Shown: positions 28,266 through 47,539 of the stretch, in pieces
How the letters are laid out: every line of letters begins with the position of its first letter
How positions within the stretch are numbered: position 1 is the first letter of the stretch
Origin: Fidelibacterota bacterium
Lineage (GTDB): Bacteria > Fidelibacterota > Marinisomatia > Marinisomatales > JABMOV01
DNA: 64,000 bases
Assembly: GCA_046861395.1 (NCBI GenBank)
Contig: JBHHUC010000002.1
Coordinates: 1 to 64,000, forward strand
Direction: 5' to 3'
Translations under genes and position numbers: made by a program
The notes under the pieces: generated by a model
Databases searched by the model: none
What the model was told of the DNA's origin: nothing
Seen by the model: only the letters and a program-made list of their open reading frames with translations

Positions 28266-28344
28266 GTAATAACCGCTCTGATATGAAAAACTACCACGTA
28301 CCTGATTGAAAAAATGTCTCCAGCCTGCCATTCCGGATCGATTA

Positions 28345-28881
28345 TCATTGTTTTGCCCGGCCAATGACACCACAAGCCAACCGGGGACCGGCAGCCCCTG
28401 AAGGCTGGGACGTGAGATCATCTCGACCGGCATGGACCACCACGGCCCGACCGATAATATTATTGTCACCGCTGAAGCTTAACAACGGATCAATGAAATC
28501 GATCTGAGCAATCCCTTTCTTATCCGCCACAATATTTCCTAAATCTCCCACATGCCGTTTATTGGCCGGTTGACCACGGTCGCCGTGAGGAGCACCGGCG
28601 GGATTAAAATGACCCCCGGCCGACTTCCCGGCTGGATCGGTGCAATCACCGTACTCATGAATATGAAATCCGTGAGGACCGGCTGTTAATCCGCTAATCG
28701 TTCCGGTAACTCTGATACCGTGAGCAGCCTGAGAAAAACGAACAATGCCTTGCACCGAACTCCCCTCTGTAGGCTGCAATATCACGATGGCCGATTGTCC
28801 CACAACCAATGACAGCATGATTAAACCGGGTAAAATGGATTTCCCAAATCCTTGTAGAATATTGATAATGTTCATTCTCAT
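28345..28881 (-). CDS. sodC: Cu/Zn superoxide dismutase
   Basis: HGFHIH, AGGHFNP, RHVGDLGN, VVH, RLACGVI. Confidence 0.95.
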   Translation of the reverse strand: MRMNIINILQGFGKSILPGLIMLSLVVGQSAIVILQPTEGSSVQGIVRFSQAAHGIRVTGTISGLTAGPHGFHIHEYGDCTDPAGKSAGGHFNPAGAPHGDRGQPANKRHVGDLGNIVADKKGIAQIDFIDPLLSFSGDNNIIGRAVVVHAGRDDLTSQPSGAAGPRLACGVIGRAKQ

Positions 28882-29389: not shown

Positions 29390-29767
29390 TTACGGAACCC
29401 GGTTGGTGGTTGAATCCGGCTGCGACGGCAGTACTCTGAAATAGGAAACCTGGAACCGTCCGTTCCGAAGTTCGCCTGATACTTCCGCCCGGCGAATGGT
29501 TTCACAGAAACCGTCATCGGCATGGGCGTCGCCGTGGTCATCAATGTGGGTTCCATCGACAAAATAGGCCTTACCGTCCACGCGAATGGCCAGGTCGCAA
29601 CTAGTTCCTTCCAGTCCAAACTGACATTCACCGCAGGATGCTTCCACAATCTGCTTTTCGATTTTCATCGTACTTTCCTTTTCTTTTCCCATGATATCCT
29701 GCGCCTGAAGGAACGAAAGCACCAACAGGGATACAGTAAAAACGGTTATGAGTGCTTTAGTCATCAT
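29390..29767 (-). CDS. Exported Cys/His-rich protein (DUF6370-like)
   Basis: VEASCGECQF...CDLAIR...DDHGDAHADDGFC. Confidence 0.75.
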   Translation of the reverse strand: MMTKALITVFTVSLLVLSFLQAQDIMGKEKESTMKIEKQIVEASCGECQFGLEGTSCDLAIRVDGKAYFVDGTHIDDHGDAHADDGFCETIRRAEVSGELRNGRFQVSYFRVLPSQPDSTTNRVP

Positions 29768-30824
29768 GGCCTTCCTTGTCCATGGTTTGTACCGTAATGG
29801 ATTTTATTCTGATAACTCCGGTGCCGTTCATATATATACCCACCGGTCCGGGTGGCAGATCACCGGCGTGGCTGTGCAGAACCAATTTATCATTTACATG
29901 GAAGCGAAAATGGCGTTTCATACCAATGACCGATAATTTTGCCGGACCGGCCAAAACATATTCGCCACTGGTTTCTATATTCGGTGTTCCGTCTTCCATC
30001 CGACCCATTTCAGCCACCTGAGGTGTCAGGGATAAAAAGTCATAATTTTTCATATTGTTGAAATGATGCAGAATCTGGAAATTTCCGTCGAAGCCGGATA
30101 AATCGACGGTGACATCGATCTGAACGGCGGCCAAAGTATCCCCCATGACGAACAACACGGGTTTCTCCTTCGGATAAAAAGCCAAATGTGTCCCCAGTTC
30201 CGGCTTTGATTCGACGGCCAGAGAAATATCGTCCGGCGATCCGACCTGCCACTGTACCTGATCCACCCAATCATCAGATTCGTTTTCCCCCGGTGTCCAG
30301 GTCCAGTTTCCTTCCTGTGACAGGTTGAAGTAGTGTTCTGTTTCTTCTTGTACAACGCTTTCACTGGATTCAATCCCCGCAACCGCCAGACCGTATTGAT
30401 AGACCAATCGTCCCCCGTGATCGGCGGTGGCAGCCAGAAGCCCGGCGCCCAGCAAACCGGTAACCAGGAGAAGTCCGTCTCCCTTTTTTCCCTGCCAGGT
30501 CTGTCGATACCAATAGAGCAGATACAGAATACCGTAGGCCAGGAAGAATAATAATGTCCACAGGGCCAGGTCGGAATGTTCAATTACGGCTTCATTGGCC
30601 AGGAATGGTATCTGGACCGAATCGACGGCAATTCTTCCGGAAAACCAGGTCACCACCAGGCTCAGGATGCCGATACCCAGAATGATACCGTTTACGGTAC
30701 GCCAATACGATTCCTTCAGAAACAGGGCCACGCCTTGCAGCAACAAGGCCAATAAGAGGATCCCTACAGGGAAGTGTACAATCAGCGGATGCAGGTTGGG
30801 CATCCAGGTTGGTAAAAAATTCAT
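29757..30824 (-). CDS. DUF2231-like membrane protein with C-terminal soluble beta-sandwich domain
   Basis: HPLIVHFP, EH, ADHGGRLVYQYG. Confidence 0.78.
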   Translation of the reverse strand: MNFLPTWMPNLHPLIVHFPVGILLLALLLQGVALFLKESYWRTVNGIILGIGILSLVVTWFSGRIAVDSVQIPFLANEAVIEHSDLALWTLLFFLAYGILYLLYWYRQTWQGKKGDGLLLVTGLLGAGLLAATADHGGRLVYQYGLAVAGIESSESVVQEETEHYFNLSQEGNWTWTPGENESDDWVDQVQWQVGSPDDISLAVESKPELGTHLAFYPKEKPVLFVMGDTLAAVQIDVTVDLSGFDGNFQILHHFNNMKNYDFLSLTPQVAEMGRMEDGTPNIETSGEYVLAGPAKLSVIGMKRHFRFHVNDKLVLHSHAGDLPPGPVGIYMNGTGVIRIKSITVQTMDKEGHDD

Positions 30825-31118
30825 TTCTCACTCCTTTTCTTCATTAAACACAGGGTGTCTGTCGATCTTACACGCATTCTCCCACCATGATTGCATTAAA
30901 CGATCATCGCTGTTTCTCTCTATTGGAGAAACCGGTTATAAACCCACTCCTCCGGTATCCGACGGGAAAAAGGGTTAATTTCCCCTATAATCCGACGAAA
31001 TTCGGAAAAATATACCGGCTGTTTTACCGGAGGTATGGTCCGGGGCGTTTACACCCTGAACTGCCGCAGGCAGGAGTCAAAAGAATTATTCCAATTACAC
31101 CGGCCGGGGATCAGCAAA

Positions 31119-31586
31119 TCAGTTTTTCTCCAGCGCTGCCGGAATCATCTCCATCCCGCACTCTGAACATTTGCCCGGTTCATTGCTGCGGGTATTGGAA
31201 TGGGACGCCATGGGACAGACGTAAAATTCCGCTTTTTCCGCAGTTGCTTTCTTGACGGCAACCAACGCCATCCCGCATTCCGAACATTTACCCGGTTCAT
31301 CGCTATGAATATTTTTATGCGATTCCATGGGACAGGTATAATACAGGGCTTCGCTGTCGGATTCCATCATAGCCATTCCTTTCTTATGTTTCATGTTTTC
31401 CATCATTTTATCATGATCCATGTTCTTCATCATTTTGCCATCCATCTTGTGTTCTTTCTGGCCTTTTTCCATTTTTTGCATCATGGTTTTATCCATGGTA
31501 TGATCATCCTGATCTTTGTCTTTCTGTTGACCGGAAACCAGTCCAATCGACATGATCAGCATGACCGGTATGAGTATTCTACGCAT
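31119..31586 (-). CDS. Exported Met/His-rich protein with two heavy-metal-binding domains
   Basis: Signal peptide; Met/Lys/His tract; YTCPMESH...PGKCSECGM and YVCPMASH...PGKCSECGM. Confidence 0.85.
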   Translation of the reverse strand: MRRILIPVMLIMSIGLVSGQQKDKDQDDHTMDKTMMQKMEKGQKEHKMDGKMMKNMDHDKMMENMKHKKGMAMMESDSEALYYTCPMESHKNIHSDEPGKCSECGMALVAVKKATAEKAEFYVCPMASHSNTRSNEPGKCSECGMEMIPAALEKN

Positions 31587-31619
31587 TGTGACTCCTTGTG
31601 TGTTGTGAAATTGTTTGTC

Positions 31620-32006
31620 TTACAAGCCCTGAATGATGGATTGCAATTTATCCCTGATTTCTCCGGCAATCCCTGCCAGTCCGGGGTTCTGAATGGACTG
31701 CATGGATGCCAGGGGATCCACCGCAGCGATTTCGACTTCACCGGGTGCTTGTTCCATGACAACCACATTGCAGGGCAGCATGGTTCCTACTTTCTCTTCC
31801 GCCTGTAGCGCCTTATAGGCATAGGGCGGATTACATGCCCCCAGAATGACATAGGGTTTGAAATCCACATCCAGTTTCTTCTTCAGCGTTGCCTGCACAT
31901 CAATCTGGGTAAGGATTCCGAATCCTTCCTCTGCCAGGGCAGCGGTCACCTGATCGATGGCTTCGGCAAAATAAGCCTGGATTGTTTTACTAAAATAATA
32001 GCTCAT
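31620..32006 (-). CDS. DUF302 domain protein
   Basis: GFGILTQIDV, YVILGACNP, GTMLPCNVVV; start ATG 32006. Confidence 0.88.
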   Translation of the reverse strand: MSYYFSKTIQAYFAEAIDQVTAALAEEGFGILTQIDVQATLKKKLDVDFKPYVILGACNPPYAYKALQAEEKVGTMLPCNVVVMEQAPGEVEIAAVDPLASMQSIQNPGLAGIAGEIRDKLQSIIQGL

Positions 32007-32052
32007 GGTCTTTTCTTTCTTGGTTGAGCGTCCCGATTTTTCATTTCCTTCA

Positions 32053-32457
32053 TTATTTCCGGGAAAAACGCGCATTATACTGCGCCATGGTGGCCGGGGA
32101 CTCAAAGTAGCGGATCAAGCCGTCCTTTTGGGCCCCGATGACAGCAACAGCCTTATCGACGGTCGCGCCGGTTACCGGGTCTTTCGCCACCCGCAGACCG
32201 GCATCTTCCAGTAAGCGTGACTGGCAGCCCTTGCAACAGCCGTAATAGGTTTTATCTCCCACCACAGCCGGAAGCAATTCCTTATCAAATAACCGGTCTT
32301 CACCCATGCCCATGCAGACATATTTCGCTGCTGCCGGTGTGACGGGTCCCGGTTCTGAAACGGAGGGCGTCATGTCGTGCTTCATTTGCGCCGGCAGAAA
32401 TGTAATCATCAGGAAGATCACTGTCAGTAAAAACCGACTCGTACTGTATTTCATCAT
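32053..32457 (-). CDS. Exported TRASH/YHS-like metal-binding protein
   Basis: VCMGM, GDKTYYGCCKGC, DPVTG. Confidence 0.75.
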   Translation of the reverse strand: MMKYSTSRFLLTVIFLMITFLPAQMKHDMTPSVSEPGPVTPAAAKYVCMGMGEDRLFDKELLPAVVGDKTYYGCCKGCQSRLLEDAGLRVAKDPVTGATVDKAVAVIGAQKDGLIRYFESPATMAQYNARFSRK

Positions 32458-32488
32458 TGTGTCCTGTCTTATGAGAATTAAGTCACCG

Positions 32489-32944
32489 TTATTGGTCTGT
32501 GGGAGAGTCGCCCATCATACCACCGTTATCCCCCATCATGCCGTCATGATTCATCATTTTACCCTTATGTTCCATTTTTCCTTTCATCATGCCGCCTTTT
32601 TTATCCATCATGGGACAATTGTCGCCATCTTTTCCGTGCATGCCACCGGCCTTCATACCACAACCGGCGCCCATTCCCATCATCGGTCCGCCGTGCATGG
32701 AACCCATCATGGCGTCCATCATCGGAGCCCGGGACTGAAAACGACCGTCTTCCCAATTCCTTACGGCGTAGTAGCTGGTGCAAAGCAGGGCAAAGAAGGC
32801 TAATATCAGGATAAAATATCCCAGGACTCTACCCAGTCCCCGATAAGAACCCGTTTCATCTTTCTGGGCTTTCAGTAAAACAAAAAACCCAACTCCAAGT
32901 GCGATTAATTCCAGCGCAAAGGCTGTATCTGCGAGAAACAACAT
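32489..32944 (-). CDS. Two-TM membrane protein with Met/Gly-rich tail
   Basis: Two hydrophobic helices followed by MMDAMMGSMHGGPMMGM...CPMM...MMNHDGMM. Confidence 0.75.
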   Translation of the reverse strand: MLFLADTAFALELIALGVGFFVLLKAQKDETGSYRGLGRVLGYFILILAFFALLCTSYYAVRNWEDGRFQSRAPMMDAMMGSMHGGPMMGMGAGCGMKAGGMHGKDGDNCPMMDKKGGMMKGKMEHKGKMMNHDGMMGDNGGMMGDSPTDQ

Positions 32945-32962
32945 TGTGTTCTCCTTTCCTGT

Positions 32963-33805
32963 TTATTCCGTAACAAAGGCGATGAAAACACCACCGTTAA
33001 CCTGGTCACCCATGGATATCATCTCTGACATCATGGTCTGATGGCCATCCTGCATCGTTTCCATGCCATCCATGAGACACAACGTATACATCGTTGAATC
33101 CATTAACATGGAATCGGGATCAAATACCATGGTCATATCGGTTTCGTTCCAGGTATAACTGCCATCCAGGCCCGACATCATACCCATCATGGGCATTTCC
33201 GTCAATTCACCCTGATGTAACTCAATCCGGCTTTCCACCGAATTATGATTTATGGGAACCGAGAACCGAATCTCCACGGTTGTCATGGGATTGATCCCCG
33301 TACTTCCGGCTGCCGGAGTGACCGACAGAATCCGGGGTGAGGTACGGGCAGCGGTAGTGAAAAAGGAAATAATACCTTCTTCGACTTCCATGCCATGATC
33401 CTGCATTCCCGACATCATCATTCCTTCGCCGTGATCACTGTCCATCATCATTCCCGATTGGAGACAAACCGAATACTGGGTGGAATCCATCAGCGTATCC
33501 GGATGAAAGGTCATGACCGTCCGCTCACCGTTCCAGCTGAACTGTCCTGCCATCCGACCCATCATACTCTCCGGGATCGTACTCAACTGTCCCGCAAATA
33601 TTCCAAATCGCGATTCACAGGATCCGGTATCCATGGGATCGCTGAACGTCACTTCAACCGCCGTTGTCCGGGCCACTTCGGTGGCACCATCCGGGGGTGA
33701 AATACTGACAATTTCCGGGGCGTCCCCGTTATTATTGTTACAACCCGTCGCCAGCCATAGAAGGGCTATGATTCCGAGCAGGATACTTAATTTTCTTTTC
33801 ATCAA
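32963..33805 (-). CDS. Lipoprotein with two Ig-like (Big_5/SbsA-type) domains carrying Met-rich loops
   Basis: Lipobox LATGC; repeats PEIVSISPPDGAT..VTFSDPM and PRILSVTPAAGST..IRFSVPI; MMMDSDHGEGMMMSGM. Confidence 0.78.
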   Translation of the reverse strand: MMKRKLSILLGIIALLWLATGCNNNNGDAPEIVSISPPDGATEVARTTAVEVTFSDPMDTGSCESRFGIFAGQLSTIPESMMGRMAGQFSWNGERTVMTFHPDTLMDSTQYSVCLQSGMMMDSDHGEGMMMSGMQDHGMEVEEGIISFFTTAARTSPRILSVTPAAGSTGINPMTTVEIRFSVPINHNSVESRIELHQGELTEMPMMGMMSGLDGSYTWNETDMTMVFDPDSMLMDSTMYTLCLMDGMETMQDGHQTMMSEMISMGDQVNGGVFIAFVTE

Positions 33806-33820: not shown

Positions 33821-34189
33821 TTAATTAATGGCATGACCGTACATGTTTTTAACCAGCTCCACGACGTAGGCCATGGTTGACCCGCTGCGCAGATTCGACT
33901 CAATGAATTTTTTGGTCGAAATGGCCGTCGGACAGGTACAGGCATTCAGATTTTCTTCGTCACATGAGCCACAGGAACATTTAAACTGTTCGGCGATGGC
34001 CACCGTCTGCGGACTGAAAACGACCGGCAAGGCTTGTGCTTTCTCCTGCATCGGTGTGTGCTGAGTGTTTTGAACAATGCTGCCGATCCAGATTCCCACG
34101 GCCAGGAGGATTGCGCTTACGGCCGCATATCCGGCCACACTTTCCGTGCGTTGTTTTGCCCCCTTCTTTGGCTTGGTTTTTCTGGCCAT
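33821..34189 (-). CDS. Single-TM Cys-rich protein, distantly CcmH-like
   Basis: Basic N-terminus, TM helix, FKCSCGSC-x7-CTC, C-terminal VKNMYG. Confidence 0.6.
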   Translation of the reverse strand: MARKTKPKKGAKQRTESVAGYAAVSAILLAVGIWIGSIVQNTQHTPMQEKAQALPVVFSPQTVAIAEQFKCSCGSCDEENLNACTCPTAISTKKFIESNLRSGSTMAYVVELVKNMYGHAIN

Positions 34190-34205: not shown

Positions 34206-36695
34206 CTATAGTTTCAGGGTCCGTAACCGCAGGGCATTTCCAATCACTGATACGGAACTGAAACTCATGGCAGCAGCCGCGATGATGGGACTGAGCAACA
34301 ATCCGAAAATGGGATAGAGAGCTCCCGCGGCCAGCGGTACGCCCAGGGCGTTGTAGGCAAAGGCCCAGAACAGGTTCTGGCGGATATTCCGCATGGTACC
34401 GCGACTGAGATACACAGCCCGGACGATGCCATTCAGATCGCCTTTCACCAGGGTGATTCCAGCACTTTCGATGGCGACATCCGTACCGGAGCCCATGGCA
34501 ATTCCAATGTGAGCCTGGGCCAGAGCCGGGGCATCATTGATACCATCGCCCGCCATGGCCACGATTTGGCCCTTCGCCTGTAATTCTTTTACTACTTCAT
34601 TTTTCCGGTCGGGCATGACGTCCGCCACCACATCATCGATACCTAATTGCTGTGCGACGGCTTCAGCCGTAGCGCGATTGTCGCCGGTCAGCATCACCAC
34701 CCGAATTTTTTCCTTCTGCAGGGCCTTGATGGCCTTGGGAGTGGTAGCCTTGATGGGATCGGCAATGCCCATGATGCCGGCCAGTTGCCAGTCCACTGTA
34801 ATGAATATCACCGTTTCGGCCTTTTTCCGCAGGCGATCCGCTTCTTCACCCATGGAACCAACATCGATCCCCAATTCATCCATGTAGCGGCGGTTTCCGA
34901 TATTGACCACCCGACCACTGACGGTTCCGGATATCCCTTTACCGGTCACTGAATCAAATGCTTCGTATTTCACGATGGACAATCCGGTTTCCCGGGCTTT
35001 GGCCACAATGGCTTCACCCAGCGGATGTTCACTGCCCTGTTCCAGACTGGCGGCCAGCTGCAGCAATTCATTCTCCGTGACAACACCGGTGGTCTTGATG
35101 GTTACTACGGCCGGTTTCCCTTCCGTAAGCGTGCCGGTTTTATCCACCACCAAGGTGTTGACCTTTTCCATTATTTCCAGGGCTTCGGCATTTTTAATCA
35201 ATACACCCGCCATGGCCCCGCGACCGGTGCCAACCATGATAGACATGGGCGTTGCCAGGCCTAAAGCACAAGGACATGCGATAATCAGAACGGCCACGGC
35301 ATTAACCAATGCATAGGCCAGACGAGGTTCGGGTCCGACAAACGCCCAAATAATAAATGTAATGATACTGATAATGACCACGGCCGGAACAAAATAGGAC
35401 GATACCTTATCCGCCAGTCCCTGAATGGGAGCCCGGCTGCGTTGCGCCTCACTCACCATCTGGACAATACGGGACAGCAATGTATCACTGCCGATTTTCT
35501 CAGCCCGCATCAGGAATGATCCGGTTCCGTTGACCGTGGCACCGGTAACCTTATCACCGACACCTTTTTGCACCGGCAGGGGTTCTCCCGTCATCATGGA
35601 TTCATCCAGAGTGCTGCTGCCTTCGATAATTTCACCGTCAACGGGGACCTTATCACCGGGACGAACGCGGAGGATGTCACCTTCCTTGACCTGATCCAGA
35701 GGAATATCCTCTTCCGAGCCGTCTTCCCGGACAATCCGGGCCGTTTTCGGCGCCAGACCCAACAAAGCCTTTATGGCACTGCTGGTTTTATCCCGGGCTC
35801 GTAATTCGAGGACCTGTCCCAAGAGGACCAGGGTTACAATGACAGCCGCAGCTTCGTAATACACTTCCACATTTCCATCCGGTCCGCGGAACGCAGCGGG
35901 GAAAATATGGGGGAAGATCGTCGCAATCAGACTGTAGCCATACGCGACACCGGTACCGATTCCGATGAGGGTGAACATATTCAGATTCCAGCTGACAATG
36001 GAACGCCAGCCCCGAACGAAGAAGGGGGCACCGCCCCAGAGAACGACCGGCGTAGCCAGTAACAGTTCAATCCAGGGTTGCCAGCCACCGCCAATTAACG
36101 GCTGATCGGTAAACATGACCGCCATGGTAAGCAGGACCAGCGGCACGGAAAGAATCGTACTGAAAATAAACCGTTTCGTCATATCCTTCAGTTCCGGATT
36201 TCCCTCTTCCTCCGCCGTCACGGTCTTGGCTTCCAGAGCCATACCGCAGAGGGGGCATTCCCCCGGTTCATTTTTTACAATTTCAGGGTGCATGGGACAG
36301 ACATATTCCGTCGAATCTATTCGGGTTGTCACGGGGACAAACGGTTCCAGGGCCATGCCGCATTTCGGGCAGGAACCGGGACCGGGCTGCTGGACATCGG
36401 GATGCATGGGACAGGTGTAAATCTGATCTTTCTTCCCGGCTTGATGATTATGTTTTTTGGCCTGCTTGTCATGTTGCTGGTGAGCATCGTGAGAACCGCC
36501 GCAACAACGGTGATTATGCGCCGTTGCGGATTCATCTTTCTCCGCTTTTTTCGCACTGGTCACATATTGATCGGGGTGAGACACAAAGCTGTCATGACAA
36601 TGGGAAGAGCAAAAATAATATTCTTTTCCTTCGTGCGTTGCCTTGGCGGCAGCAGTGGCAGGGTTTATATCCATATTACATACTGGATCTTTCAT
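34206..36695 (-). CDS. copA: Cu(I)-translocating P1B-type ATPase with YHS and heavy-metal-binding domains
   Basis: DPVC/YFCS YHS, two TCPMHP-type domains, TGEP, CPC, DKTGT, SEHP, GDGIND, YN, MSFSS; SD GAGGAG before ATG 36695. Confidence 0.95.
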
Positions 36696-36815
36696 TTTAA
36701 ATCTCCTCTTGGGTTTCGCTGTAGAAATCATGGGCGAAGATGATAATTCCGCGCCGTAATATTTCTTTGATTATTGCCTGTAAATATTCTTGTTTCATTT
36801 TAATCATTATTTATC

Positions 36816-37427
36816 CTAAAGGTCGATTCCCGAAAATGCCATGAATGACATGGATAGAAGTCCGGTGACCAGCATGGTAATTCCCAGACCGCGTAATCCC
36901 ACCGGTACATTGGAATACCGCATCTTCTGCCGGATCGTCGCCATGGTAATGATCGCCAGAAACCAGCCGAACCCCGAACTGAAACCATACACGGTGGATT
37001 CCATCAGGTTATAATTCCGTTCAATCAGCAGCAGCGATACACCCAGGATGGCACAATTGACGGCGATCAGGGGGAGAAAAATTCCCAGAGCGGAATGAAG
37101 GGCCGGACTGAAACGATCCAGCACCATTTCCAGTAATTGGACGGTGGCGGCAATGACGGCAATGAACACAATGTAGGACAGATAGCTCAGATCGATATCC
37201 GGGAAGCCTAACCAGGCCATGGCCCCGTCATTCAGAAAATAATAGTTAATCGCCCAGTTCATCGGTGCGGTTATGGTCAGGACAAAGGTTACTGCCAGCC
37301 CCAATCCGATGGACGGTTCCACTTTCCGGGAAATGGCCAGAAAAGGACAAATCCCCAGATAAAAGGCCAGAATAATGTTTTCGGTAAAAATGGAGCGCAG
37401 GGCAAGGCTGAGATAATGTTCCATCAT
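36816..37427 (-). CDS. nqrE: NqrE homologue (Na+-NQR subunit E-like), no other nqr genes except nqrD nearby
   Basis: YLGICPFLA, GAMAWLGFPDIDLSYL, VQLLEM, LGIFLPLIAVNCAILG, VPVGLRGLGIT. Confidence 0.9.
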   Translation of the reverse strand: MMEHYLSLALRSIFTENIILAFYLGICPFLAISRKVEPSIGLGLAVTFVLTITAPMNWAINYYFLNDGAMAWLGFPDIDLSYLSYIVFIAVIAATVQLLEMVLDRFSPALHSALGIFLPLIAVNCAILGVSLLLIERNYNLMESTVYGFSSGFGWFLAIITMATIRQKMRYSNVPVGLRGLGITMLVTGLLSMSFMAFSGIDL

Positions 37428-38077
37428 GATCCGTGTCCTCCATGGCCCTCAGCCGGCAGATTCTTTTGTAAATCGGGTAAAAGGGCGTTCTGCAACCAAA
37501 CCAATAATCCCAGAATGATGAATGCTCCCGGAGCCAGAATCATCAACAGAGTATTCTGATAGCCGGCGGCATAAAAGGATTCGGGAATGATGGTCCATCC
37601 GAACAATGACCCGAAGCCAAGCAATTCCCGGAAAAAGGCCACGGAAACCAGTGCGATGCCATATCCTACCGCATTCCCCAGACCATCCAGAAAGGCTTTC
37701 CCGGGAGAATTATGTATGCTGAATCCTTCGGTTCGTCCCAGGACAATGCAATTGGTAATGATCAGGGCCACAAAGACCGACAACTGTTTGCTGATGGAAT
37801 ACAGGTAGGCTTTTAACACCTGATCGGTAATAATCACCAGTGAAGCAATGATCACCAGTTGAACGATGATTCTGACGCGGGATGGAATCAGGTGGCGCAG
37901 CAGTGAAACAAAGGTACTGGATAAGGATAATACGAAGATCACGGCTGCCGTCATTACAATGGCTGTTTCCAGCTTTACGGTCACCGCCAACGCCGAACAA
38001 AATCCCAGCACCAGATAGGTGATCGGATTTCGTTCAATCAATGGATCGGTAAAGATTTTCATGGTTTTGGATGCCAC
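37424..38077 (-). CDS. nqrD: NqrD homologue (Na+-NQR subunit D-like) with His/Gly tail
   Basis: NPI..VLGFCSALAVT, IPSRVRII, DQVLKAY..SKQLSVFV, IITNCIVLGR, DGLGN; GTG start with GGAGG SD. Confidence 0.9.
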   Translation of the reverse strand: MASKTMKIFTDPLIERNPITYLVLGFCSALAVTVKLETAIVMTAAVIFVLSLSSTFVSLLRHLIPSRVRIIVQLVIIASLVIITDQVLKAYLYSISKQLSVFVALIITNCIVLGRTEGFSIHNSPGKAFLDGLGNAVGYGIALVSVAFFRELLGFGSLFGWTIIPESFYAAGYQNTLLMILAPGAFIILGLLVWLQNALLPDLQKNLPAEGHGGHGS

Positions 38078-38134: not shown

Positions 38135-38713
38135 TCAACGGTCCTTGATTTGATCCAGGCTGATCCGTTGATCTTTTTTCAACGATTTAAAGTGACGGGG
38201 CGTTAACCCCGTCACTTTCTTGAACTGGCTTGATAAATACTGTACCGAACTGTAACCAAGGAGGTCGGCTATTTCCGTTAATGTTAATTCATCATACACC
38301 AGTAGTTCTTTGGCTTTTTCAACTTTCTGCAGGATGTAGTATTTTTCGATTGTCATACTTTCCACCGCTGAAAAGAGCTGAGTCAGATAATGGTAATCCT
38401 GACCCATCTTTTCGGCGATATAATCAGAAACATTGATATTGAGCCGGGCCACCTCACCGCTTTGAATCAAATCGATGATGATGGTTTTAATATTTTCAAT
38501 CAATTGCGCCCGCGTATCGATCAGCAATTCAAATCCGTTGTTTTCCAGGACCTTTTCCAGGTCGGAAACGTCGGTAATGATTTCTGCATTGGACACAATG
38601 ACCCGACCCAACCGGATATCCAGGATATGCAATCCCAGTTTTTCCAGTTCTTCCTTTACGACTTTGATACACCGGTCGCAGACCATGTTTTTGATATAGA
38701 TCGTATTTCGCAT
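38135..38713 (-). CDS. AraC-family regulator with N-terminal HMA-like metal-binding motif
   Basis: IKNMVCDRC; TIEKYYILQKVEKAKELL; LGYSSVQYLSSQFKKVTGLTP; start ATG 38713. Confidence 0.9.
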   Translation of the reverse strand: MRNTIYIKNMVCDRCIKVVKEELEKLGLHILDIRLGRVIVSNAEIITDVSDLEKVLENNGFELLIDTRAQLIENIKTIIIDLIQSGEVARLNINVSDYIAEKMGQDYHYLTQLFSAVESMTIEKYYILQKVEKAKELLVYDELTLTEIADLLGYSSVQYLSSQFKKVTGLTPRHFKSLKKDQRISLDQIKDR

Positions 38714-38726
38714 GATGATCTCCGGT

Positions 38727-39071
38727 TCAGGCCAGAGCTTCGGCCCCGGTTTTTCCCGATCGGATTTTGACAACCTGTTCCACAGGAGAGGCCAGAATCA
38801 ATCCGTCCCCGGATTCCCCGGAATAGGCCGCTTTTCGGATGATGGCAATAATCTGACCGGCGTCCTCATCACTGCTGATGATTTCCAGTTTGGCAATGGT
38901 GGAATAACGTTCGATGCATTCAATGGAATACTTGTAATGATGTTTATCCACCATTCCGCGGCCCAGTGCCATCACATCGATAACCGTCATGTTATGGAAC
39001 CCTTTATCCTTCAATGCCAGGATCACTTCATCCACTTTGGTACAACGGACATAGGCTTTTATTTCTTTCAT
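38727..39071 (-). CDS. PII-family protein coupled to cusA
   Basis: MKEIKAYVR, KLEI, SGESGDG, KIRSG; ATGA overlap with the cusA stop. Confidence 0.88.
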   Translation of the reverse strand: MKEIKAYVRCTKVDEVILALKDKGFHNMTVIDVMALGRGMVDKHHYKYSIECIERYSTIAKLEIISSDEDAGQIIAIIRKAAYSGESGDGLILASPVEQVVKIRSGKTGAEALA

Positions 39072-42000
39072 GAAACGTCAACTCCTTTCTCATGATGTTT
39101 CATTTCCCAGGCACGCCAGATGTAGTACACGGTGGGAATAACCACCAGGGTCAGTATGGTTGAAGTAATCATTCCGCCCACCATGGGTGCCGCAATGCGT
39201 TTCATGACCTGGGAACCGGTTCCAGCTCCCCACAGGATGGGGATTAAACCGGCCATGATGGCTGTTACCGTCATCATCTTGGGCCGTACCCGTTCCACAG
39301 CCCCTTCCATGACGGCATCGTATAAATCTGACAGTGATTTCATTTTCCCATTGTCCTTCCGATAGAAATAGGAATGATCTAGGTAGATTAGCATAATGAC
39401 ACCGGTTTCGGCAGCAACACCTGCCAGGGCGATAAATCCGACACCCACGGCAACACTCATGTTATATCCCAGAATGTACATGAACCAGATTCCTCCCACC
39501 AATGCGAACGGCAGGGACAGCATGACAATGATACTTTCCGTAATATTCTTGAAATTGAAATACAGCAGAAGGAAAATAATGACCAGGGTAATGGGTATGA
39601 CCAGTTTCAGTCGTTTATTGGCCCGTTCCATGTATTCGTACTGACCGCTCCAGACAATGGAATATCCGGCGGGAATCTGTACTTCTTCTTCCAGGACCTG
39701 TTTGGCACGCTTGACATAGGTTCCTACATCGATGCCTGCCAAATCCACGTAAATCCAACCGGTCATACGGGCGTTTTCGCTCTTGATCACCGGCGCACCC
39801 TTTTTGATGCGAATATCGGCGACCTGGGAAATGGGAATCTGGGCGCCCGTGGGTGTGGGGATAATGACGCGTTTCAGCTTTTCAATATTATCCCGCAGTT
39901 CCCGACTGTAACGAACATTGACCGGATACCGTTCCAGACCTTCCACCGTATAGGTCACATTCATGCCACCTACTGCGGATTGAATGATATCTTGAATGTC
40001 ACCGACCGTCAAACCGTAGCGTCCCGCTTCTTCCCGGTTAATTTCGAAATCCAGGAAATTTCCGCCGGTTACCTTATCGGCATAGGCACTCAGGGTGCCG
40101 GGGATCTTCTGTACCACAGCCTGAATTTGTCCGCCCAGAGCGTTCAGCGAATCCAGGTTGGAACCCATCACTTTAATCCCTACCGGTGTTTTGATCCCAG
40201 TACTAAGCATATCAATCCGGGTCTTGATGGGCATGGTCCAGGCATTGGTCAGGCCGGGAAACTGAATGGCGTTATTCAGTTCGGTGGTTAATTCCTCAAT
40301 GGTTACCACACGGTTTTCCGGCCAGAAATATTCCAGCGGAGTGCTCAGGAAATCGGGGAGTGACCAGTCAGAATAGAATCGATCGACACGTTTTCTTTTG
40401 GGCCACATTTCGATGGGTTTGAGGGTGATGGTTGTTTCAATCATGCTCAACGGTGCCGGATCGGTGGCCGATTCGGCCCGGCCGATTTTTCCGAATACAC
40501 GTTCCACCTCCGGGAATGTCTTAATGATCCGGTCTGTTTGTTGCAGAATTTCTCGAGCCTTGGTAATGGAAATACCAGGGTCCGTGGTAGGCATATAGAG
40601 CAGATCACCTTCATTCAGGGGCGGCATGAATTCCGATCCGATATGTTCCAGCGGATAGACTGAAATGGCAATGGCTGCCAGACCGGCAATCAGGGTTGTC
40701 TTGCGGAAATGCAGGACAAAACGAATGACAGGTCGGTATATTCTGATGAGAAATCGGTTGATAGGATTTTTTTCTTCGGGCATGATTTTTCCGCGCACGA
40801 AGTACCCCATCAGGACCGGCACAATGGTAATGGCCAGTATTGCCGAGGCTGCCATGGAATACGTCTTGGTAAATGCCAGGGGCCGGAATAAGCGACCTTC
40901 CTGAGCCTGGAGCGTAAACACCGGCATGAATGAAACCGTGATGATGAGCAGGGAATAGAACAGGGCCGGACCCACTTCCTTGGAGGCATCCAGAATGACT
41001 TTCCAGTGATCCACCTTCCCCTTGTTGCGCTCAATATGTTTATGTGCATTCTCAATCATGACAATGGCCGCGTCCACCATCGCCCCGATGGCAATGGCAA
41101 TACCTCCCAGCGACATGATATTGGCATTGATTCCCTGATAGCGCATGACCAGAAATGCCATGAGGATACCCACCGGAAGGGTGAATATGGCCACAAAGGC
41201 ACTGCGGAAATGAAGCAGGAAGAGAATACAGACCAGAGATACGACAATACTTTCTTCCAACAGTTTGTCTTTCAGATTATCAATGGCGCGCTCAATCAGG
41301 AGGGAGCGGTCATAGGCCGGTTTAATCGTCACCCCTTCCGGTAAACCTATTTTCAGATCTTCAATTTTTTCCCGGACTTTATGGATGACTTTCAGGGCAT
41401 TTTCACCGTAACGCATCACAATAATGCCACCCACCGTTTCACCGATACCGTCCCGCTCGGCTAGTCCCCGGCGCAGTTCAGGTCCCAGATGAATATTAGC
41501 GACATTCTTCAATAAGATCGGTGTGCCGTTGTCATCTACTTTGAGGGGAATATTTTCCAGGTCCGTCAGGGATTTGATGTATCCCAGACCGCGGACCATG
41601 TATTCCGTTTCCGACATTTCTACCAGACGGCCACCCACATCATTATTGCTGCGTTTGATGGCCATTTTCACATGATTCAGGGGAATGTTGTAGGCCAGCA
41701 GCTTATTGGGATCCACTTCCACCTGATACTGTTTCACGAAACCGCCGATGCTGGCGACTTCCGAAACACCGGGCACCGACATGAGTTCGTAGCGCAGATA
41801 GAAGTCCTGAATGGAACGCAATTCCTGGAGATCGTGGTTATCCGATTCCACCGTGTATTCATAGACCCAACCCACGCCGGTGGCATCGGGGCCTAATTGC
41901 GGTGTCACACCTTGGGGCAGTCGCCCGGATACGAAATTCAGATATTCCAGCACCCGGCTTCGAGCCCAATATATATCCGTCCCGTCTTCAAAGATGATGT

Positions 42001-42280
42001 ATACAAAGGATATCCCGAAGAAGGAATACCCCCGCACCACTTTGGCGTATGGGACGGAAAGCATGGCGGTGGTCAGAGGATAGGTAATCTGATCCTCCAC
42101 CACCTGCGGGGCCTGCCCCGGATAATTGGTCTGAATAATGACCTGAACATCGCTCAGGTCGGGAATGGCGTCCAGCGATGTGGTGGACATGGCCAGAAAC
42201 CCTCCCAGGATGATGAAGACCATGGCCAGGATCACGAGGAAGCGATTGTTTATGGACCATTCTATAATTTTTTCAATCAT
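39068..42280 (-). CDS. cusA: CusA/SilA heavy-metal efflux RND permease
   Basis: LDAIPDLSDVQV, GPDATGVGWV, GAMVDAAIVM, EFMPPLNEG, DPAPLSMIET, ERVRPKMMT. Confidence 0.96.
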   Translation of the reverse strand: MIEKIIEWSINNRFLVILAMVFIILGGFLAMSTTSLDAIPDLSDVQVIIQTNYPGQAPQVVEDQITYPLTTAMLSVPYAKVVRGYSFFGISFVYIIFEDGTDIYWARSRVLEYLNFVSGRLPQGVTPQLGPDATGVGWVYEYTVESDNHDLQELRSIQDFYLRYELMSVPGVSEVASIGGFVKQYQVEVDPNKLLAYNIPLNHVKMAIKRSNNDVGGRLVEMSETEYMVRGLGYIKSLTDLENIPLKVDDNGTPILLKNVANIHLGPELRRGLAERDGIGETVGGIIVMRYGENALKVIHKVREKIEDLKIGLPEGVTIKPAYDRSLLIERAIDNLKDKLLEESIVVSLVCILFLLHFRSAFVAIFTLPVGILMAFLVMRYQGINANIMSLGGIAIAIGAMVDAAIVMIENAHKHIERNKGKVDHWKVILDASKEVGPALFYSLLIITVSFMPVFTLQAQEGRLFRPLAFTKTYSMAASAILAITIVPVLMGYFVRGKIMPEEKNPINRFLIRIYRPVIRFVLHFRKTTLIAGLAAIAISVYPLEHIGSEFMPPLNEGDLLYMPTTDPGISITKAREILQQTDRIIKTFPEVERVFGKIGRAESATDPAPLSMIETTITLKPIEMWPKRKRVDRFYSDWSLPDFLSTPLEYFWPENRVVTIEELTTELNNAIQFPGLTNAWTMPIKTRIDMLSTGIKTPVGIKVMGSNLDSLNALGGQIQAVVQKIPGTLSAYADKVTGGNFLDFEINREEAGRYGLTVGDIQDIIQSAVGGMNVTYTVEGLERYPVNVRYSRELRDNIEKLKRVIIPTPTGAQIPISQVADIRIKKGAPVIKSENARMTGWIYVDLAGIDVGTYVKRAKQVLEEEVQIPAGYSIVWSGQYEYMERANKRLKLVIPITLVIIFLLLYFNFKNITESIIVMLSLPFALVGGIWFMYILGYNMSVAVGVGFIALAGVAAETGVIMLIYLDHSYFYRKDNGKMKSLSDLYDAVMEGAVERVRPKMMTVTAIMAGLIPILWGAGTGSQVMKRIAAPMVGGMITSTILTLVVIPTVYYIWRAWEMKHHEKGVDVS

Positions 42281-42293
42281 GATATCCCCCGCC

Positions 42294-44144
42294 TTAATCT
42301 GTTACGGATGTTGTGGACATGGCCTTCAGGTTCATCCCGCATTCGGGGCATTTACCCGGTTCGTCCATCACAACATAGGTGTGTTCCGGCATGGGACAAG
42401 TGTACCAGGTGGTATTCTCATCCACCGGAACCGTCTTTTTCACCAAGGCCATGCCGCATTGGGGACAATCACCGGCTTCAGCCATTTTAACAAAGGAATG
42501 GGCTTCCATGGGACAGGTGTAATATGTCAATTCATCACCCATCACCGTTCCGAAGGGGACGGCGGGCATGTCATGATTATGATTATTATCGTGCGTTTTT
42601 TCCACGTCCATCTGCATCGGCTGATCCATGTTCATGTCCATCTGCATTGACTTGTCCATGTTCATCTTCATGGGTTTATCCATGTCCATTTCAGATTCCG
42701 ATGCGCTGGGCTCCGGTTCTTCCTGGGACTGGCCCGCCTTGCGGTTGGCCAGCATCTTGGCGATGCCTTCCTGGAGGCGGCTTTCTGAATCCAGCAGGAA
42801 CTGTCCGGACAGAACAATGGTTTCGCCCGGCTTCAGGCCGTCTCTGATTTCATAATAATGGTCACCGGACTGGATGCCCACCGTTATATCACGAGGTGCA
42901 AATCGTCCGCCACCCAGGGCCACAAACAGCAGGGTTCTTTCGCCGGAGAACAGGACGGCTTCCTGCGGTACGGCCACGACATTTTTCACCGGCTCGGCTT
43001 GGATCGTTACATTGGCGTACATCCCCGGCTTCAGACGAAGATCCTCATTATCCACCACCAGCCGGACCTTGATGGTGCGGCTTTTGGTTTCAAGGATGGG
43101 ATAGATATAATCCACGATACCTTCAAAGGATTCACCCGGAAAGTAGGGTAACGTCACCGTGGCCCGCTGTCCCTGGGCAATCCAGGGAAGTTCCGATTCA
43201 TAGATTCTGGCCTGAATCCAAACCTGAGACAGGTCGGCCAGGGTATAGAGCGTCATGCCCGGTTTGACTTCCATGCCGTCAAGAACGTGTTTCGTAATGA
43301 CAAAACCGTCATAGGGCGACTGGATAACCAGGGTTTTACTGATTTTACCCGTTTCTTCCAATACTTTGATTTGTTCACTGGAAATATCATAGTATTCCAG
43401 TCGGGTCCGGGCCGAATTGAGAATATTTTCCATATTGCGCCGCAGGACAGAATCACTGGAAGCCGGCAATATCTGGAGATTATGGTAAGCATCCAGGTAC
43501 TCATCCTGAGCCGTCACCAGCTGGGGACTGTAAATTTCCAGCAATTGCTGTCCCCGAACGACTTTCTCACCGGTGGTGGCAACAAATGTTCTTTCCACCC
43601 AGCCAGATATCTTGGTATGAATATGGGAAACGCGTTTTTCATCCGTTTCTACCTCGGCAAAGGTACGAATCGCAAGCGATAGATCACGCCGTTCCACCTT
43701 GGCTGTACGGACGCCCATATTCTGTTCCGTAACGGGATTGATTTTTACCGTACTGCCGAATGCCTCTTCACCTTCATAGACGGGAATCAAATCCATACCC
43801 ATGGGGGATTTCCCCGGTTTGGGACTGATGTAGGACGGATCCATGGGCGCCTGCCAATAGAGAATTTTCTTTTCCCCGGAAGAAGAGGACGCTGACGAAC
43901 CGCCGGTAGCAGCAGCTGTTTCGCCGGGACCGTTCAGCGGATTGAGGCGCATGCCGCAAATGGGACAGTCACCGGGACCCTCCTGGATGACATTGGGGTG
44001 CATTCCGCAGGTGTAGAGTTCCTTGCTGGCCGCATCCGCCTGAGCGGTGGCCTGATCTTCCGATGATCCACACCCCGCAACCCCCAGAGCGAAGATAATA
44101 ATTATACCGATCACTAGATTTTTCGTTATGATTAATTTTTTCAT
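42294..44144 (-). CDS. cusB: CusB-type periplasmic adaptor lipoprotein with extra heavy-metal-binding domains
   Basis: Lipobox VAGC; YTCGMHP; YWQAPMDP..PGKSPMGMDL; YSPQL; LKPGMY; SGQFLLDSES; two C-terminal CPMxxH domains; ATG 44144. Confidence 0.92.
   Translation of the reverse strand: MKKLIITKNLVIGIIIIFALGVAGCGSSEDQATAQADAASKELYTCGMHPNVIQEGPGDCPICGMRLNPLNGPGETAAATGGSSASSSSGEKKILYWQAPMDPSYISPKPGKSPMGMDLIPVYEGEEAFGSTVKINPVTEQNMGVRTAKVERRDLSLAIRTFAEVETDEKRVSHIHTKISGWVERTFVATTGEKVVRGQQLLEIYSPQLVTAQDEYLDAYHNLQILPASSDSVLRRNMENILNSARTRLEYYDISSEQIKVLEETGKISKTLVIQSPYDGFVITKHVLDGMEVKPGMTLYTLADLSQVWIQARIYESELPWIAQGQRATVTLPYFPGESFEGIVDYIYPILETKSRTIKVRLVVDNEDLRLKPGMYANVTIQAEPVKNVVAVPQEAVLFSGERTLLFVALGGGRFAPRDITVGIQSGDHYYEIRDGLKPGETIVLSGQFLLDSESRLQEGIAKMLANRKAGQSQEEPEPSASESEMDMDKPMKMNMDKSMQMDMNMDQPMQMDVEKTHDNNHNHDMPAVPFGTVMGDELTYYTCPMEAHSFVKMAEAGDCPQCGMALVKKTVPVDENTTWYTCPMPEHTYVVMDEPGKCPECGMNLKAMSTTSVTD
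42606..42690. repeat. Imperfect tandem repeat encoding the Met-rich CusB linker
   Basis: GTCCATCTGCAT at 42606 and 42636; TCCATGTTCAT at 42625 and 42655 (30-bp period); encodes MDMDKPMKMNMDKSMQMDMNMDQPMQMD. Confidence 0.7.
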
Positions 44145-44145
44145 G

Positions 44146-45408
44146 TTATCCCTCAATGTTTAACAGTCCGACAACTTTTCGCAGATTTGCTTCTCCGATA
44201 CGCTGTTCCATAAGAACCCGCTCATATTCCAGTTTCAGTGTGACGGTCATCCGTTCACTGTCCAATAAATCAAGAAAACTGATTTTACCCGTTTTATAGG
44301 CGGCATAGGCTGAAGACAGCATCTGTTCCGCTTCCGGTAACAACCGGTTTTCATACAGGGCCACCGTTTCATCGGTCTGGGCCAGAGCGGCCAGAATGGT
44401 TTCAATCCGCTCCGTGACTTTATTGCCCACATCAACAGTCGTGATCTGACTGGCTTCTTCCGTCTGCCGGGCAGATTCTACCCGTGCCTTATTGCGTCCC
44501 AGCCATAACGGCAGGTTGAGGCCGATCTTAACCCCCAGGGCATTTTTACCGGCGGCGACGGCACCGGGCAAATCGGTCGGTCCTACCACCGTATAGGTCA
44601 CACCGGCCACCAGATCGGGAAGGTTTTGTTTTTCACTGAGTTCCCGGGTGACGGTGGCAATTTCCTTCTTGATCAGAGAGGATTGGAGCAGAGGATTGGA
44701 AGTCGTTGCGGCGGCAACCCAGCCGGCAAGAGGTTCTTCCTCCCGTGGCGGCCAGTTCAGCGATGCCAGACGGACCGTGTCCACCGGTTCATTAAAGAGA
44801 CGTGTCAGGGATTCCAACACAGCGACCTTTTTTCCCATAAGATCATTGGTTTTGGCCTCCACCCGCGTCTGCTCAATCTGCAATTTCAAAATGGGGTGCT
44901 GGGTCAATCCCTGCCCGGTGGAATACTGGGTCAGAGCCACATTGCGAAACGATTCCAGTTCGGCACGATAGCCGTTCAGAATATTCAGCGATCGGGTAAT
45001 CTGAACGTATTGGGCAAATCGCGTTTCAAACTGGTTAATAATGGACAGCCGCACCTGTCTGGCATTTTGACGGGCCAGTTCACGATTCAGGACCGCGATT
45101 TTTTCCTGGCGACTGAGTTTCCCCCAGAGCGGAAATTTTTGTCCCAGCATAAGCTGGTTTTCGATGGGGCCATTCCGTGTTTCCACGGGGGCCAGGGCAG
45201 TAGAAAATTCGAATTTGGGATCCGGCAGTGTTCCGGCCACCTTGATGGCCGCTTCCCGGGCAGCAATCTGCCGATCGGCAATACGCACTTCCGGATTTGT
45301 TGTCAGCAGGGTGTTTAATTCCTGGTCCCAGTCTGAAATCTGCGCCCCGACGACCGAGATCAACAGACTGACCAACATTATATTTCTATTAAAATTGTAA
45401 GTAAACAA
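44146..45408 (-). CDS. cusC: TolC-family outer-membrane efflux protein (CusC role)
   Basis: LPDP, QKFPLWGK, LNLPLW, YKTGKISFLDLLDSER; TTG start with GGAG SD. Confidence 0.88.
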   Translation of the reverse strand: MFTYNFNRNIMLVSLLISVVGAQISDWDQELNTLLTTNPEVRIADRQIAAREAAIKVAGTLPDPKFEFSTALAPVETRNGPIENQLMLGQKFPLWGKLSRQEKIAVLNRELARQNARQVRLSIINQFETRFAQYVQITRSLNILNGYRAELESFRNVALTQYSTGQGLTQHPILKLQIEQTRVEAKTNDLMGKKVAVLESLTRLFNEPVDTVRLASLNWPPREEEPLAGWVAAATTSNPLLQSSLIKKEIATVTRELSEKQNLPDLVAGVTYTVVGPTDLPGAVAAGKNALGVKIGLNLPLWLGRNKARVESARQTEEASQITTVDVGNKVTERIETILAALAQTDETVALYENRLLPEAEQMLSSAYAAYKTGKISFLDLLDSERMTVTLKLEYERVLMEQRIGEANLRKVVGLLNIEG

Positions 45409-46258: not shown

Positions 46259-47539
46259 GGTTCATCGCAATAACCCGTACCTAGATTCGTGCAACGAGTA
46301 GATCTTCAGTTTAAAATATTCCATATCCCTATAGCCATATGCTTTTCGTTTTAGGACTTTGATTTTATTATTCATTCCTTCCAAAGGCCCGGTTGATATG
46401 GGATACAAAAACCAGTTAAAGATATCCGTTCGATGCGCAAGCAACGTATGGGCATATTGTTTCAGTCGTGGTATCTCTGATGCCATGGCCTTAGCAACCC
46501 ATTGTCCCAAAATACTTTGGCGTGTTCAACAGAATCCTGTTGCCATAACAACTGTAATTCCTCTTTCAGGTAATAAGCGGTTACCAGAGGTTTATTAATC
46601 CTAAGCGCCTCCTCTAAACGGTTCTTCTGGTGGGGGGTGCTCACAGATGACCGATTCATCAATTACAGCCATCGTGTCCCCTTCAAGATATTTTTCTTAA
46701 GAGCACCTTTCTCCTGGTGAAATAATTCCCGTCTTATATCTTGAAGGTGGCGGTGGAGTATTTGTGTTATATGAAAACGATCAAACACAATCTTCGCTTG
46801 TGGAAGTTTCATTGTTACGGCATCAATATATGCCGGCCACATATCGGTTGCCACAGCTGGAATCTGGGCACGGGAGGCCTTGAGGCGTTTTAAAAAAGGG
46901 ACTAATGTGGACGCCGAACGTCCCTCACCAACATAGACTACGGACCCTGTGGTTAAATCCATAACCACCGTATAATAACGATGTCCTTTACGAACCGCAA
47001 ACTCATCAATGGCGATATATTTTAAATCTTTTAATCGGGGTGGCGAGAATATCTCTGCTGTAAATGGGTTTTGTCTATCGCTTTGATTAGCCCCCAACTC
47101 ACCTGAAAATATGCTGCCACATCCTGAACCGTGCCAAAAGATAATAAGGTTATGGCACATCGCTTAAATGCATGAGTAAATCGTTTTTTTATCCGCAAAC
47201 TTGATCTTCTCCTGACGAAGAACTCCGCATGAATTACAATACAATCGTTGTAGTGCTATCTTGATGAAAATAGGTTTCATCCCCACATTCACACTGCGAA
47301 ATATCCGAGGAATCGCCCCCTTCTTGATCACATCAGGGCTGCCACATACACTACAACGTAGCTTACTCGCTTTGGTCTTTACATGAAATATGATGGACCC
47401 CGATTTATATTCAGTTTTTATATAATGCTGATCCTTCAGGCCCAAGGCATGGTATATTAAACTGGTTGACATTGCTTTCCTCTCTTTTGGTGAAATTTAA
47501 ACATAAGGGACCGATAGGTACGCATTATTGTGATGAACC
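46259..47539 (-). mobile_element. ISL3-family insertion sequence, inactive
   Basis: 25-bp terminal inverted repeats matching 22/25 (GGTTCATCGCAATAACCCGTACCTA at 46259-46283; 47515-47539 in reverse); no clean target duplication. Confidence 0.88.
46262..47472 (-). pseudogene. ISL3 transposase pseudogene
   Basis: Fragments in several frames: CSVC/CNSC zinc finger, IAIDEFAVRKGHRY, DMWPAY, FDRFH, STGPLEGMNNKIKVLKRKAYGYRD; frameshifts plus in-frame TAA at 46665-46663. Confidence 0.9.

Follow-up and report, generated by a model that had tools for sequence, protein, structure and literature searches.

A stretch of 64,000 nucleotides from a Fidelibacterota bacterium (the window; contig JBHHUC010000002.1, positions 1 to 64,000) encodes intact paralogs of NqrD and NqrE, here called D′ and E′, inside a block of copper genes. 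Trees, selection ratios and gene neighborhoods show that, as far as sequence can tell, the pair is an old duplicate of NqrD and NqrE from the host's own lineage, kept by selection and travelling with copper islands. The explanation we tentatively prefer is that D′ and E′ stand in for the regular subunits of the host Na+-NQR during copper stress. The features of the block are given below in window coordinates.

46262–47472, minus strand: ISL3 transposase, broken into three or more pieces, upstream of cusC and the island, with a GC dip to 0.415
39068–45408, minus strand: cusC-cusB-cusA, heavy-metal RND efflux genes
38727–39071, minus strand: P-II-like protein, by domain match
38135–38773, minus strand: HMA-AraC regulator, NMVCDRC (MxCxxC) at the N-terminus plus an AraC HTH; likely start 38713
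37424–38077, minus strand: nqrD′, island NqrD paralog, 217 aa, with Cys27 and Cys110
37427–37450, minus strand: His-containing C-terminal tail of D′ (residues 210–217), predicted to be cytoplasmic, in place of the acidic tail of operonic NqrD
36816–37427, minus strand: nqrE′, island NqrE paralog, 203 aa, with Cys27 and Cys125
34206–36731, minus strand: copA, P1B-1 Cu(I)/Ag(I) ATPase with YHS and HMBD domains; likely start 36695
33821–34189, minus strand: CcmH-like membrane-anchored protein, CSCGxC...CxC
29757–33805, minus strand: downstream island genes for Big_5/CopC-like, Met-rich membrane, 134-aa Cys, DUF302, HMBD and DUF2231 proteins

Both reading frames lie where the first-pass annotation of this DNA had placed them, intact, co-oriented and overlapping by 4 bases between the HMA-AraC gene and copA. 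nqrD′ starts with GTG behind a GGAGG, 57 bp downstream of the regulator gene, and a scan of the sequence between araC and the copA start gave weak promoter consensus matches only and no terminator-like site. The four membrane cysteines and the unusual tail that had been read from the letters are likewise present (LGFCS and TNCIV in D′, LGICP and VNCAI in E′, and EGHGGHGS at the end of D′). An assembly artefact as the origin of the pair is ruled out by bridging contigs in all four sequencing runs of one sample, possibly the source of the window DNA: copA, E′, D′, araC and part of cusA share a single contig (33000–39782) in three runs, and a single contig covers 35971–39782 in the fourth.

The gene order is cusC-cusB-cusA-PII-araC-D′-E′-copA-ccmH-like-Big_5-...-DUF302-HMBD-DUF2231. 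CopA carries CPC, YN and MSFSS, which we take to be the Cu(I)/Ag(I) signature. The window cusA is 92% identical to cusA of genomes G023 and G035, whose copA and araC are distant, and the island is therefore a mosaic. In the CcmH-like protein the pattern F-x-C-S-C-G-x-C-x-E-x-x-L-x-x-C-x-C is invariant in six islands, and this is probably a periplasmic metal/thiol protein that belongs to copper islands and has not been described before. msrA and a Cu/Zn sodC lie directly below the island on the same strand (27675–28881).

The proteins themselves are members of the NqrD and NqrE families; the arrangement and the clade are what is new. The only domain match of the pair was PF02508. D′ and E′ passed the NCBIfam equivalog cut-offs for NqrD (TIGR01939, 271.5 against 244.85 bits) and NqrE (TIGR01940, 294.3 against 247.55 bits) and did not reach those for RnfE and RnfA (165.8 vs 213.4 and 202.3 vs 229.3 bits), and their closest named homologs were NqrD and NqrE of Marinimicrobia/Fidelibacterota. 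The context of a canonical nqr operon, with nqrA, B, C and F, is missing on the contig and at 10 related loci. The absence of other nqr or rnf genes nearby, claimed from the window, extends to the whole 103.8-kb contig, where tblastn with NqrA, B, C, F and ApbE of the host and RnfB, C, D and G of a relative gave no match at E ≤ 0.01, as was also the case at the 10 related loci.

The host genome has a complete pump elsewhere. PF02508 occurs in four places, namely the window pair and a pair on contig C94, where a complete nqrABCDEF-apbE operon directly follows nuo-type genes; no rnf genes were found in this genome. D′ is 63% and E′ 75% identical to these operonic copies. This result answers the question raised at the outset of whether the window pair might be the only nqrD and nqrE of a genome with split subunits, and the split-operon explanation is ruled out. 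The genes directly before the operon, on the same strand, are of nuoL/M/N type (L005:188–12856, which is G000:C94; likewise at L008–L010 and L012–L015), and at those operons the gene after apbE encodes a membrane protein, putatively Na+/H+ antiporter-like; the genes for complex I and Na+-NQR may be transcribed as one unit. In another genome (G033:C5, L010:7109–8284), a gene for a 391-aa PKD/T9SS-tail protein stands between nqrD and nqrE of an otherwise complete nqr operon.

The origin of the pair was examined with quick IQ-TREE runs supported by SH-aLRT only, after removal of same-locus duplicates and one truncated reading frame. D′ (29 of 82 rows) formed one clade (SH-aLRT 99, stem 0.53) inside operonic NqrD of the same order (SH-aLRT 98), and E′ (13 of 57 rows) formed one clade (SH-aLRT 99, stem 0.41) inside operonic NqrE, although support for the latter nesting was only 86–88. 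One clade each within the same-order operonic proteins indicates a single duplication in this order, followed by fast change and later stabilization. Pairwise dN/dS was 0.056–0.116 for D′ and 0.026–0.034 for E′, compared with 0.041–0.063 for operonic nqrD and 0.019–0.029 for operonic nqrE; several distant pairs were saturated, and all six unsaturated paired comparisons fell within 0.03–0.12. As judged by these ratios, the pair is under purifying selection similar to that on the operonic genes.

The pair is rare. Scanning for the exact D′ motif pattern gave seven stretches in the GTDB collection, five true and two by chance (Dehalobacter), and seven in metagenomes, six true and one by chance; one of these six repeats L006 and another is near-identical to L023. 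With a D′ profile, six of 401 genomes of the phylum scored 380–420 bits, while all operonic matches stayed at or below 346. The six are the host genome (family f1), two of family f14 and three of f10, and all six encode NQR; in the other five, nqrB and nqrF are over the cut-off, and in G210 the operon is fragmented over short contigs. Plasmids gave 71 matching records, all below 60% identity, and the three inspected among the 40 listed were full operons. No relative of D′E′ was found on viral contigs, and among representatives at 50% identity the G[FY]CSAL motif occurred in none of the 12 flagged among the best 150. Some clade members are labelled Planctomycetia or Simkaniaceae in database records, by transfer or mis-binning.

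When the neighbors of such pairs in other genomes were tabulated, as the first-pass annotation had proposed, all 10 distinct D′ loci were found among copper genes. At seven of them, including the window and covering three families, copA and araC lie no more than two genes from D′E′, in the order araC-D′-E′-copA or D′-E′-araC-copA (E′ of L021 is partly N-masked). The same pair beside HMA-AraC and copA at six other distinct loci in three families indicates an association beyond chance. It had been reasoned beforehand that nesting within operonic clades, combined with a copper neighborhood seen nowhere else, would speak against a special role; the nesting is there, yet the copper neighborhood recurs at every locus, so the objection fails. 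The remaining three loci, with D′ beside copA, araC or cusA-PII, belong to a D′-only sublineage described below.

The islands do not require the pair. HMA-AraC relatives occur in 35 of the 401 genomes; the pair is present in 6 of 25 such genomes with NqrD and in 0 of 10 without, numbers too few for a test, and is absent from 29 of the 35, 19 of them with NqrD. Neither D′ nor E′ was found at any of 20 control AraC loci, four of which have the same cus-PII-araC-copA-ccmH block with araC adjoining copA. The CcmH-like, Big_5, DUF302 and DUF2231 genes are thus not linked to D′E′ in their occurrence. A gene for a PetC-type Rieske protein is found one or two genes upstream at five of the 10 loci, including all three D′-only loci, and is absent from the window island. 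No candidate for a dedicated island partner (CcmH-like, Big_5, DUF2231 or Rieske) co-varies with the pair. An apparently exclusive CopA clade of D′ islands (7/7 among 17 rows) was biased by the choice of loci and was undone by a wider tree with the 30 best CopA matches added, in which D′E′ accompanies seven of nine rows of one clade, the two others being pair-less (G014 and G252), and a D′-only locus falls in the sister group with two pair-less genomes. The AraC phylogeny does not follow the pair either, requiring four changes. Several local insertions were noted: genes for ICMT-like, FAD oxidoreductase, DUF5676, PetC-type Rieske and truncated GrdB-like proteins between P-II and nqrD′ (L007:3979–7389 and L006:7997–11390), and a gene for an 88-aa half-size GDT1 (UPF0016) cation/proton antiporter between nqrE′ and copA (L021:3797–4063). 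Identical CopA core sequences at L181 (G107:C61) and L182 (G172:C448), from two families, reflect recent transfer or a binning error.

One D′ sublineage appears to keep D′ without E′. Its 13 D′ rows form a subclade (SH-aLRT 99). At L029 an intact D′ is followed after 19 bp by araC, with no E′ directly after; at L025 D′ is frameshifted by an 8-bp deletion and followed by copA, with no E′ within 17 kb; and at L030 the contig ends inside D′. No E′ protein was found on five long D′-only contigs (8.6–23 kb), and when 8000 candidates were scored with an E′ profile, the best 120 included no clade members beyond the 13, whose contigs match those of many paired D′ in length (57478, 51349, 61963, 19283, 17384, 6858, 5186, 2952, 3745 and 9285); the evidence for the sublineage is thus one short contig, one decayed locus and E′/D′ contigs matched by size, and a diverged E′ could escape it. 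dN/dS of the D′-only pair was 0.041. A dual-topology homodimer was considered for this D′ and rejected, because the K+R bias is normal rather than near zero (+6.8 in 12 solo and 16 paired D′ rows, +5.6 in 53 operonic rows, with hand-set loop limits). If the sublineage is real, the normal bias implies that its D′ needs a partner of opposite topology, most simply the NqrE of the host.

Residues were mapped by alignment to V. cholerae NqrD/E (7xk3) and nine Marinimicrobia Rnf pairs, with key residues taken from the available parts of PMC12901251, PMC11889175 and PMC10643135, and interfaces were assessed with residue lists from the literature and helix limits set by hand. In the accessible portions of the structural literature, NqrD/E holds a [2Fe-2S] cluster through four Cys and switches between an inward-open and an outward-open state, with two Leu pairs as gates and with an R/E/E ion pair (PMC10643135, PMC12901251, PMC11889175, PMC9325719, PMC12174285). 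Two studies place the Na+ path inside the NqrD/E or RnfA/E dimer (PMC12901251, PMC11889175), and whether Na+ passes via NqrB or via NqrD/E is disputed in papers of 2023–2026 (PMC10643135, PMC12901251, PMC12174285, as excerpted).

Judged from these alignments, all residues tied by published structures to cluster binding, gating and Na+ coupling are retained. The cluster cysteines (D C29/C112 and E C26/C120 in V. cholerae) correspond to D′ C27/C110, present in 29/29, and E′ C27/C125, present in 13/13, and the gate L105/L24′/L120′, T108, V123′, P119′, E117, E100′ and D131 are invariant in the clade as well. The ion-pair R69 of D′ is kept in 28 of 29, with Lys in one. The inward-gate Leu24 of D′ is Met in 14 of 16 paired D′ (14 of 29 overall), and the window D′ keeps Leu24. 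NqrD contacts NqrB through P185, L190 and F193 (PMC8755685, available part), and the NqrB-facing P183, I188 and L191 of D′ are invariant in 29/29.

Of the columns conserved in operons, D′ keeps 80/105 and E′ 95/113. At sites near-invariant in 50 operonic NqrD and 43 operonic NqrE of the phylum, D′ has the fixed changes Q22L, I26F/Y, A116T, A118G (27/29) and I142A, and E′ has L19I, M26I, S28P, Y111H, G130V and A194S; A116T alone is not unique to D′, since the GRTE motif is present in other NqrD lineages. At least two His in the tail were found in 23 of 29 island rows (one row cut by a contig end) and 0 of 53 operonic rows, and five complete island rows have 0–1 His. In a post hoc test, with topology from the published gate assignment and hand-set helix mid-points, positions were lost more often on the cytoplasmic face (12/102) than on the periplasmic one (4/115; p = 0.034, rising to 0.17 with the loosest threshold); in two control groups of operonic rows the counts were 6 vs 12 and 6 vs 5. 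Nqr-specific conserved positions were lost more often than Rnf-shared ones (D 15/40 vs 7/52; E 10/39 vs 8/63), and E′ shares GICPF with 9/9 Marinimicrobia RnfA. Clustering of changes beside the cysteines was not robust (Fisher p = 0.72, 0.33 and 0.04 at windows of 4, 6 and 8), and a systematic loss of Met was not seen, the overall Met content not being reduced. Neither chain has an extra Cys or Met motif, the mean being 2.0 Cys per chain.

The reading we prefer, that D′E′ is a copper-stress isoform of the NQR core, would work as follows. The pair, predicted to bind [2Fe-2S], would be co-transcribed with copA, induced through HMA-AraC, and would replace NqrD/E in a complex with the housekeeping NqrA, B, C and F, the D′ of the D′-only sublineage probably pairing with host NqrE. 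The swapped core would keep NADH oxidation and Na+ pumping going at high Cu(I)/Ag(I). Most speculatively, changes in the cytoplasmic vestibule (Q22L, I19L, A116T and A118G; Y111H and M95T/V of E′) might protect the cluster or catch copper as it enters, as might the bulkier residues on the ligand side (I26F/Y; M26I and S28P) and the His tail. Work with housekeeping subunits is suggested by the intact coupling machine, the kept NqrB-facing residues, the NQR in every host, the lack of a partner gene and the D′-only lineage. Cu(I) attacks Fe-S clusters, and Toulouse et al. (2018) reportedly connected the copper sensitivity of a Vibrio with the loss of NQR, a connection that we count in favor of the exchange. 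Of the two roles offered by the first-pass annotation, replacement subunits thus fit better than a stand-alone thiol conduit, considering that no gene co-varies with the pair, two DsbD_TM proteins are encoded in the host genome, NQR is present in 6/6 hosts and a sublineage apparently has D′ only. The accompanying idea that D/E is a copper-sensitive part of NQR is not established: the documented Ag+/Zn2+ target is Cys377 of NqrF (PMC12682751, available part), and no report of copper damage to the D/E cluster was found in the literature searched. This target is also the main objection to the exchange, since it is apparently kept in the host (Cys378, matched by position) and the island has no NqrF′. 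In addition, changes on the NqrF-docking face and the losses of Nqr-specific positions possibly point to a different electron donor, and the pair is dispensable, as seen from the 29 regulator genomes without it and the frameshifted copy at L025; both count against the exchange.

It is conceivable, though doubtful, that the core was instead repurposed for copper itself: on the NADH-dehydrogenase arm the His tail would capture copper, and electrons would reduce it for CopA or expel Cu+. An Fe-S cupric reductase analogous to CcoG, in which electrons, likely from NqrF, would turn Cu(II) held by the tail and vestibule into Cu(I) for CopA next door, seems unlikely to us. It would suit the lean of the changes toward the cytoplasmic face, unlike in the operonic controls, the His tail with the invariant His111 of E′, and the presence of copA within two genes at 7/7 paired loci with one CopA clade largely shared, features that accommodate such a reductase just as well as the exchange, and CcoG and the Fe-S CopZ of Archaeoglobus offer a precedent (PMC7558416, available part). 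However, the chains have no additional Cys or Met motif, five complete tails are poor in His, two CopA-clade members have no pair, and the Na+-coupling apparatus, needless for a reductase, is fully kept. That D′E′, once exchanged into NQR, turns the Na+ pump into an NADH-driven Cu+/Ag+ exporter is very improbable, even though the proposed cation path inside the dimer, the Leu-to-Met change at the inward gate of most paired D′, His111 of E′ and the cytoplasmic His tail could be read in this way. The window D′ keeps its gate Leu, export is already done by CopA and Cus, and Cu+ beside a [2Fe-2S] cluster is expected to destroy it. The cation site, as modelled, consists of backbone carbonyls and not of soft ligands (PMC12901251, available part).

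A minimal one-electron transmembrane conduit outside NQR, with a Rieske protein, DUF2231, cytochrome c, the CcmH-like protein or a multicopper oxidase as client, is in our judgment improbable. The pair is a transmembrane electron carrier in NQR and Rnf (PMC10643135, PMC12174285, as excerpted), the Rieske gene is near half of the loci, and the RnfA-like GICPF of E′ and the relaxed Nqr-specific positions agree with such a role, whereas no gene for a donor or acceptor is shared by every locus, the window island has no Rieske gene, the CcmH-like and DUF2231 genes occur in pair-less islands too, the genome already has its DsbD_TM proteins, conservation is stronger in the periplasmic half, and the NqrB-facing residues are invariant. 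A Cu(I) sink or sensor formed by the Cys4 site and tail without an Fe-S cluster is a remote prospect: four membrane Cys, a His tail and changes on both sides of E′ Cys27 would fit it, but invariant gates and switch proline, the ion pair, and constraint equal to that on operonic subunits would not be expected. Least probable of all, and largely refuted, is the view of D′E′ as a leftover piece of an operon duplication that is carried along neutrally; the patchy distribution, the frameshifted copy and the apparent loss of E′ in one lineage are consistent with it, and the low dN/dS of paired and D′-only comparisons, fixed radical changes on a long stem and retention through gene-order changes in three families are not.

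If the exchange of subunits is true, D′E′ would give a respiratory pump an isoform that is specific to stress and carried in by a metal island, and if copper is handled by D′E′ itself, this would be new chemistry for the fold. The fixed substitutions around the cation entrance provide a natural variant set for the question of a Na+ path through NqrB or NqrD/E, and in uncultured Marinimicrobia, of which few have so far been seen to carry it, the pair would tie metal tolerance to energy metabolism; the window DNA is from one hydrothermal vent sample. The claim that the arrangement is undescribed held for openly licensed PubMed Central and bioRxiv papers, supplements aside, where no description of orphan nqrDE or of nqrDE in copper clusters was found. 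The available part of a paper on NQR evolution (PMC4014512) makes no mention of orphan nqrDE, the available parts of PMC10739449, PMC7769058 and PMC7542103 added nothing, and NqrD/E, in the text accessible to us, never appears apart from the six-subunit NQR/Rnf pumps to which it inseparably belongs.

DsbD/ScsB conduits deliver electrons across the membrane near copper-tolerance genes by a two-electron dithiol relay with thioredoxin partners. Such partners are absent from the D′E′ islands, and the DsbD_TM genes of the host lie elsewhere. CcoG and CopZ of Archaeoglobus fulgidus resemble the predicted D′E′ only by analogy, as Fe-S proteins beside a Cu(I) P1B ATPase (PMC7558416, available part); CcoG has two [4Fe-4S] clusters and dedicated copper sites, while D′E′ has an unrelated fold, two Cys per chain and no such motifs. 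With RnfE/RnfA (RsxE/RsxA) the pair shares PF02508 and the GICPF of E′, but it scores below the rnf cut-offs, retains the periplasmic loop and the basic C-terminal patch of NqrE, and comes from a genome with no rnf. The closest relatives are NqrD and NqrE of Na+-NQR (V. cholerae 7xk3_D/E and 8a1t; host C94), with which D′E′ shares the family cut-offs, the cysteines, the gates, the ion pair and the NqrB-facing residues. Unlike these operonic proteins, it lies in a copper island away from nqrA, B, C and F, forms its own long-stemmed clade, is changed at near-invariant sites (Q22L, I26F/Y, A116T and A118G; M26I, S28P and Y111H) and carries a His tail where they have an acidic one.
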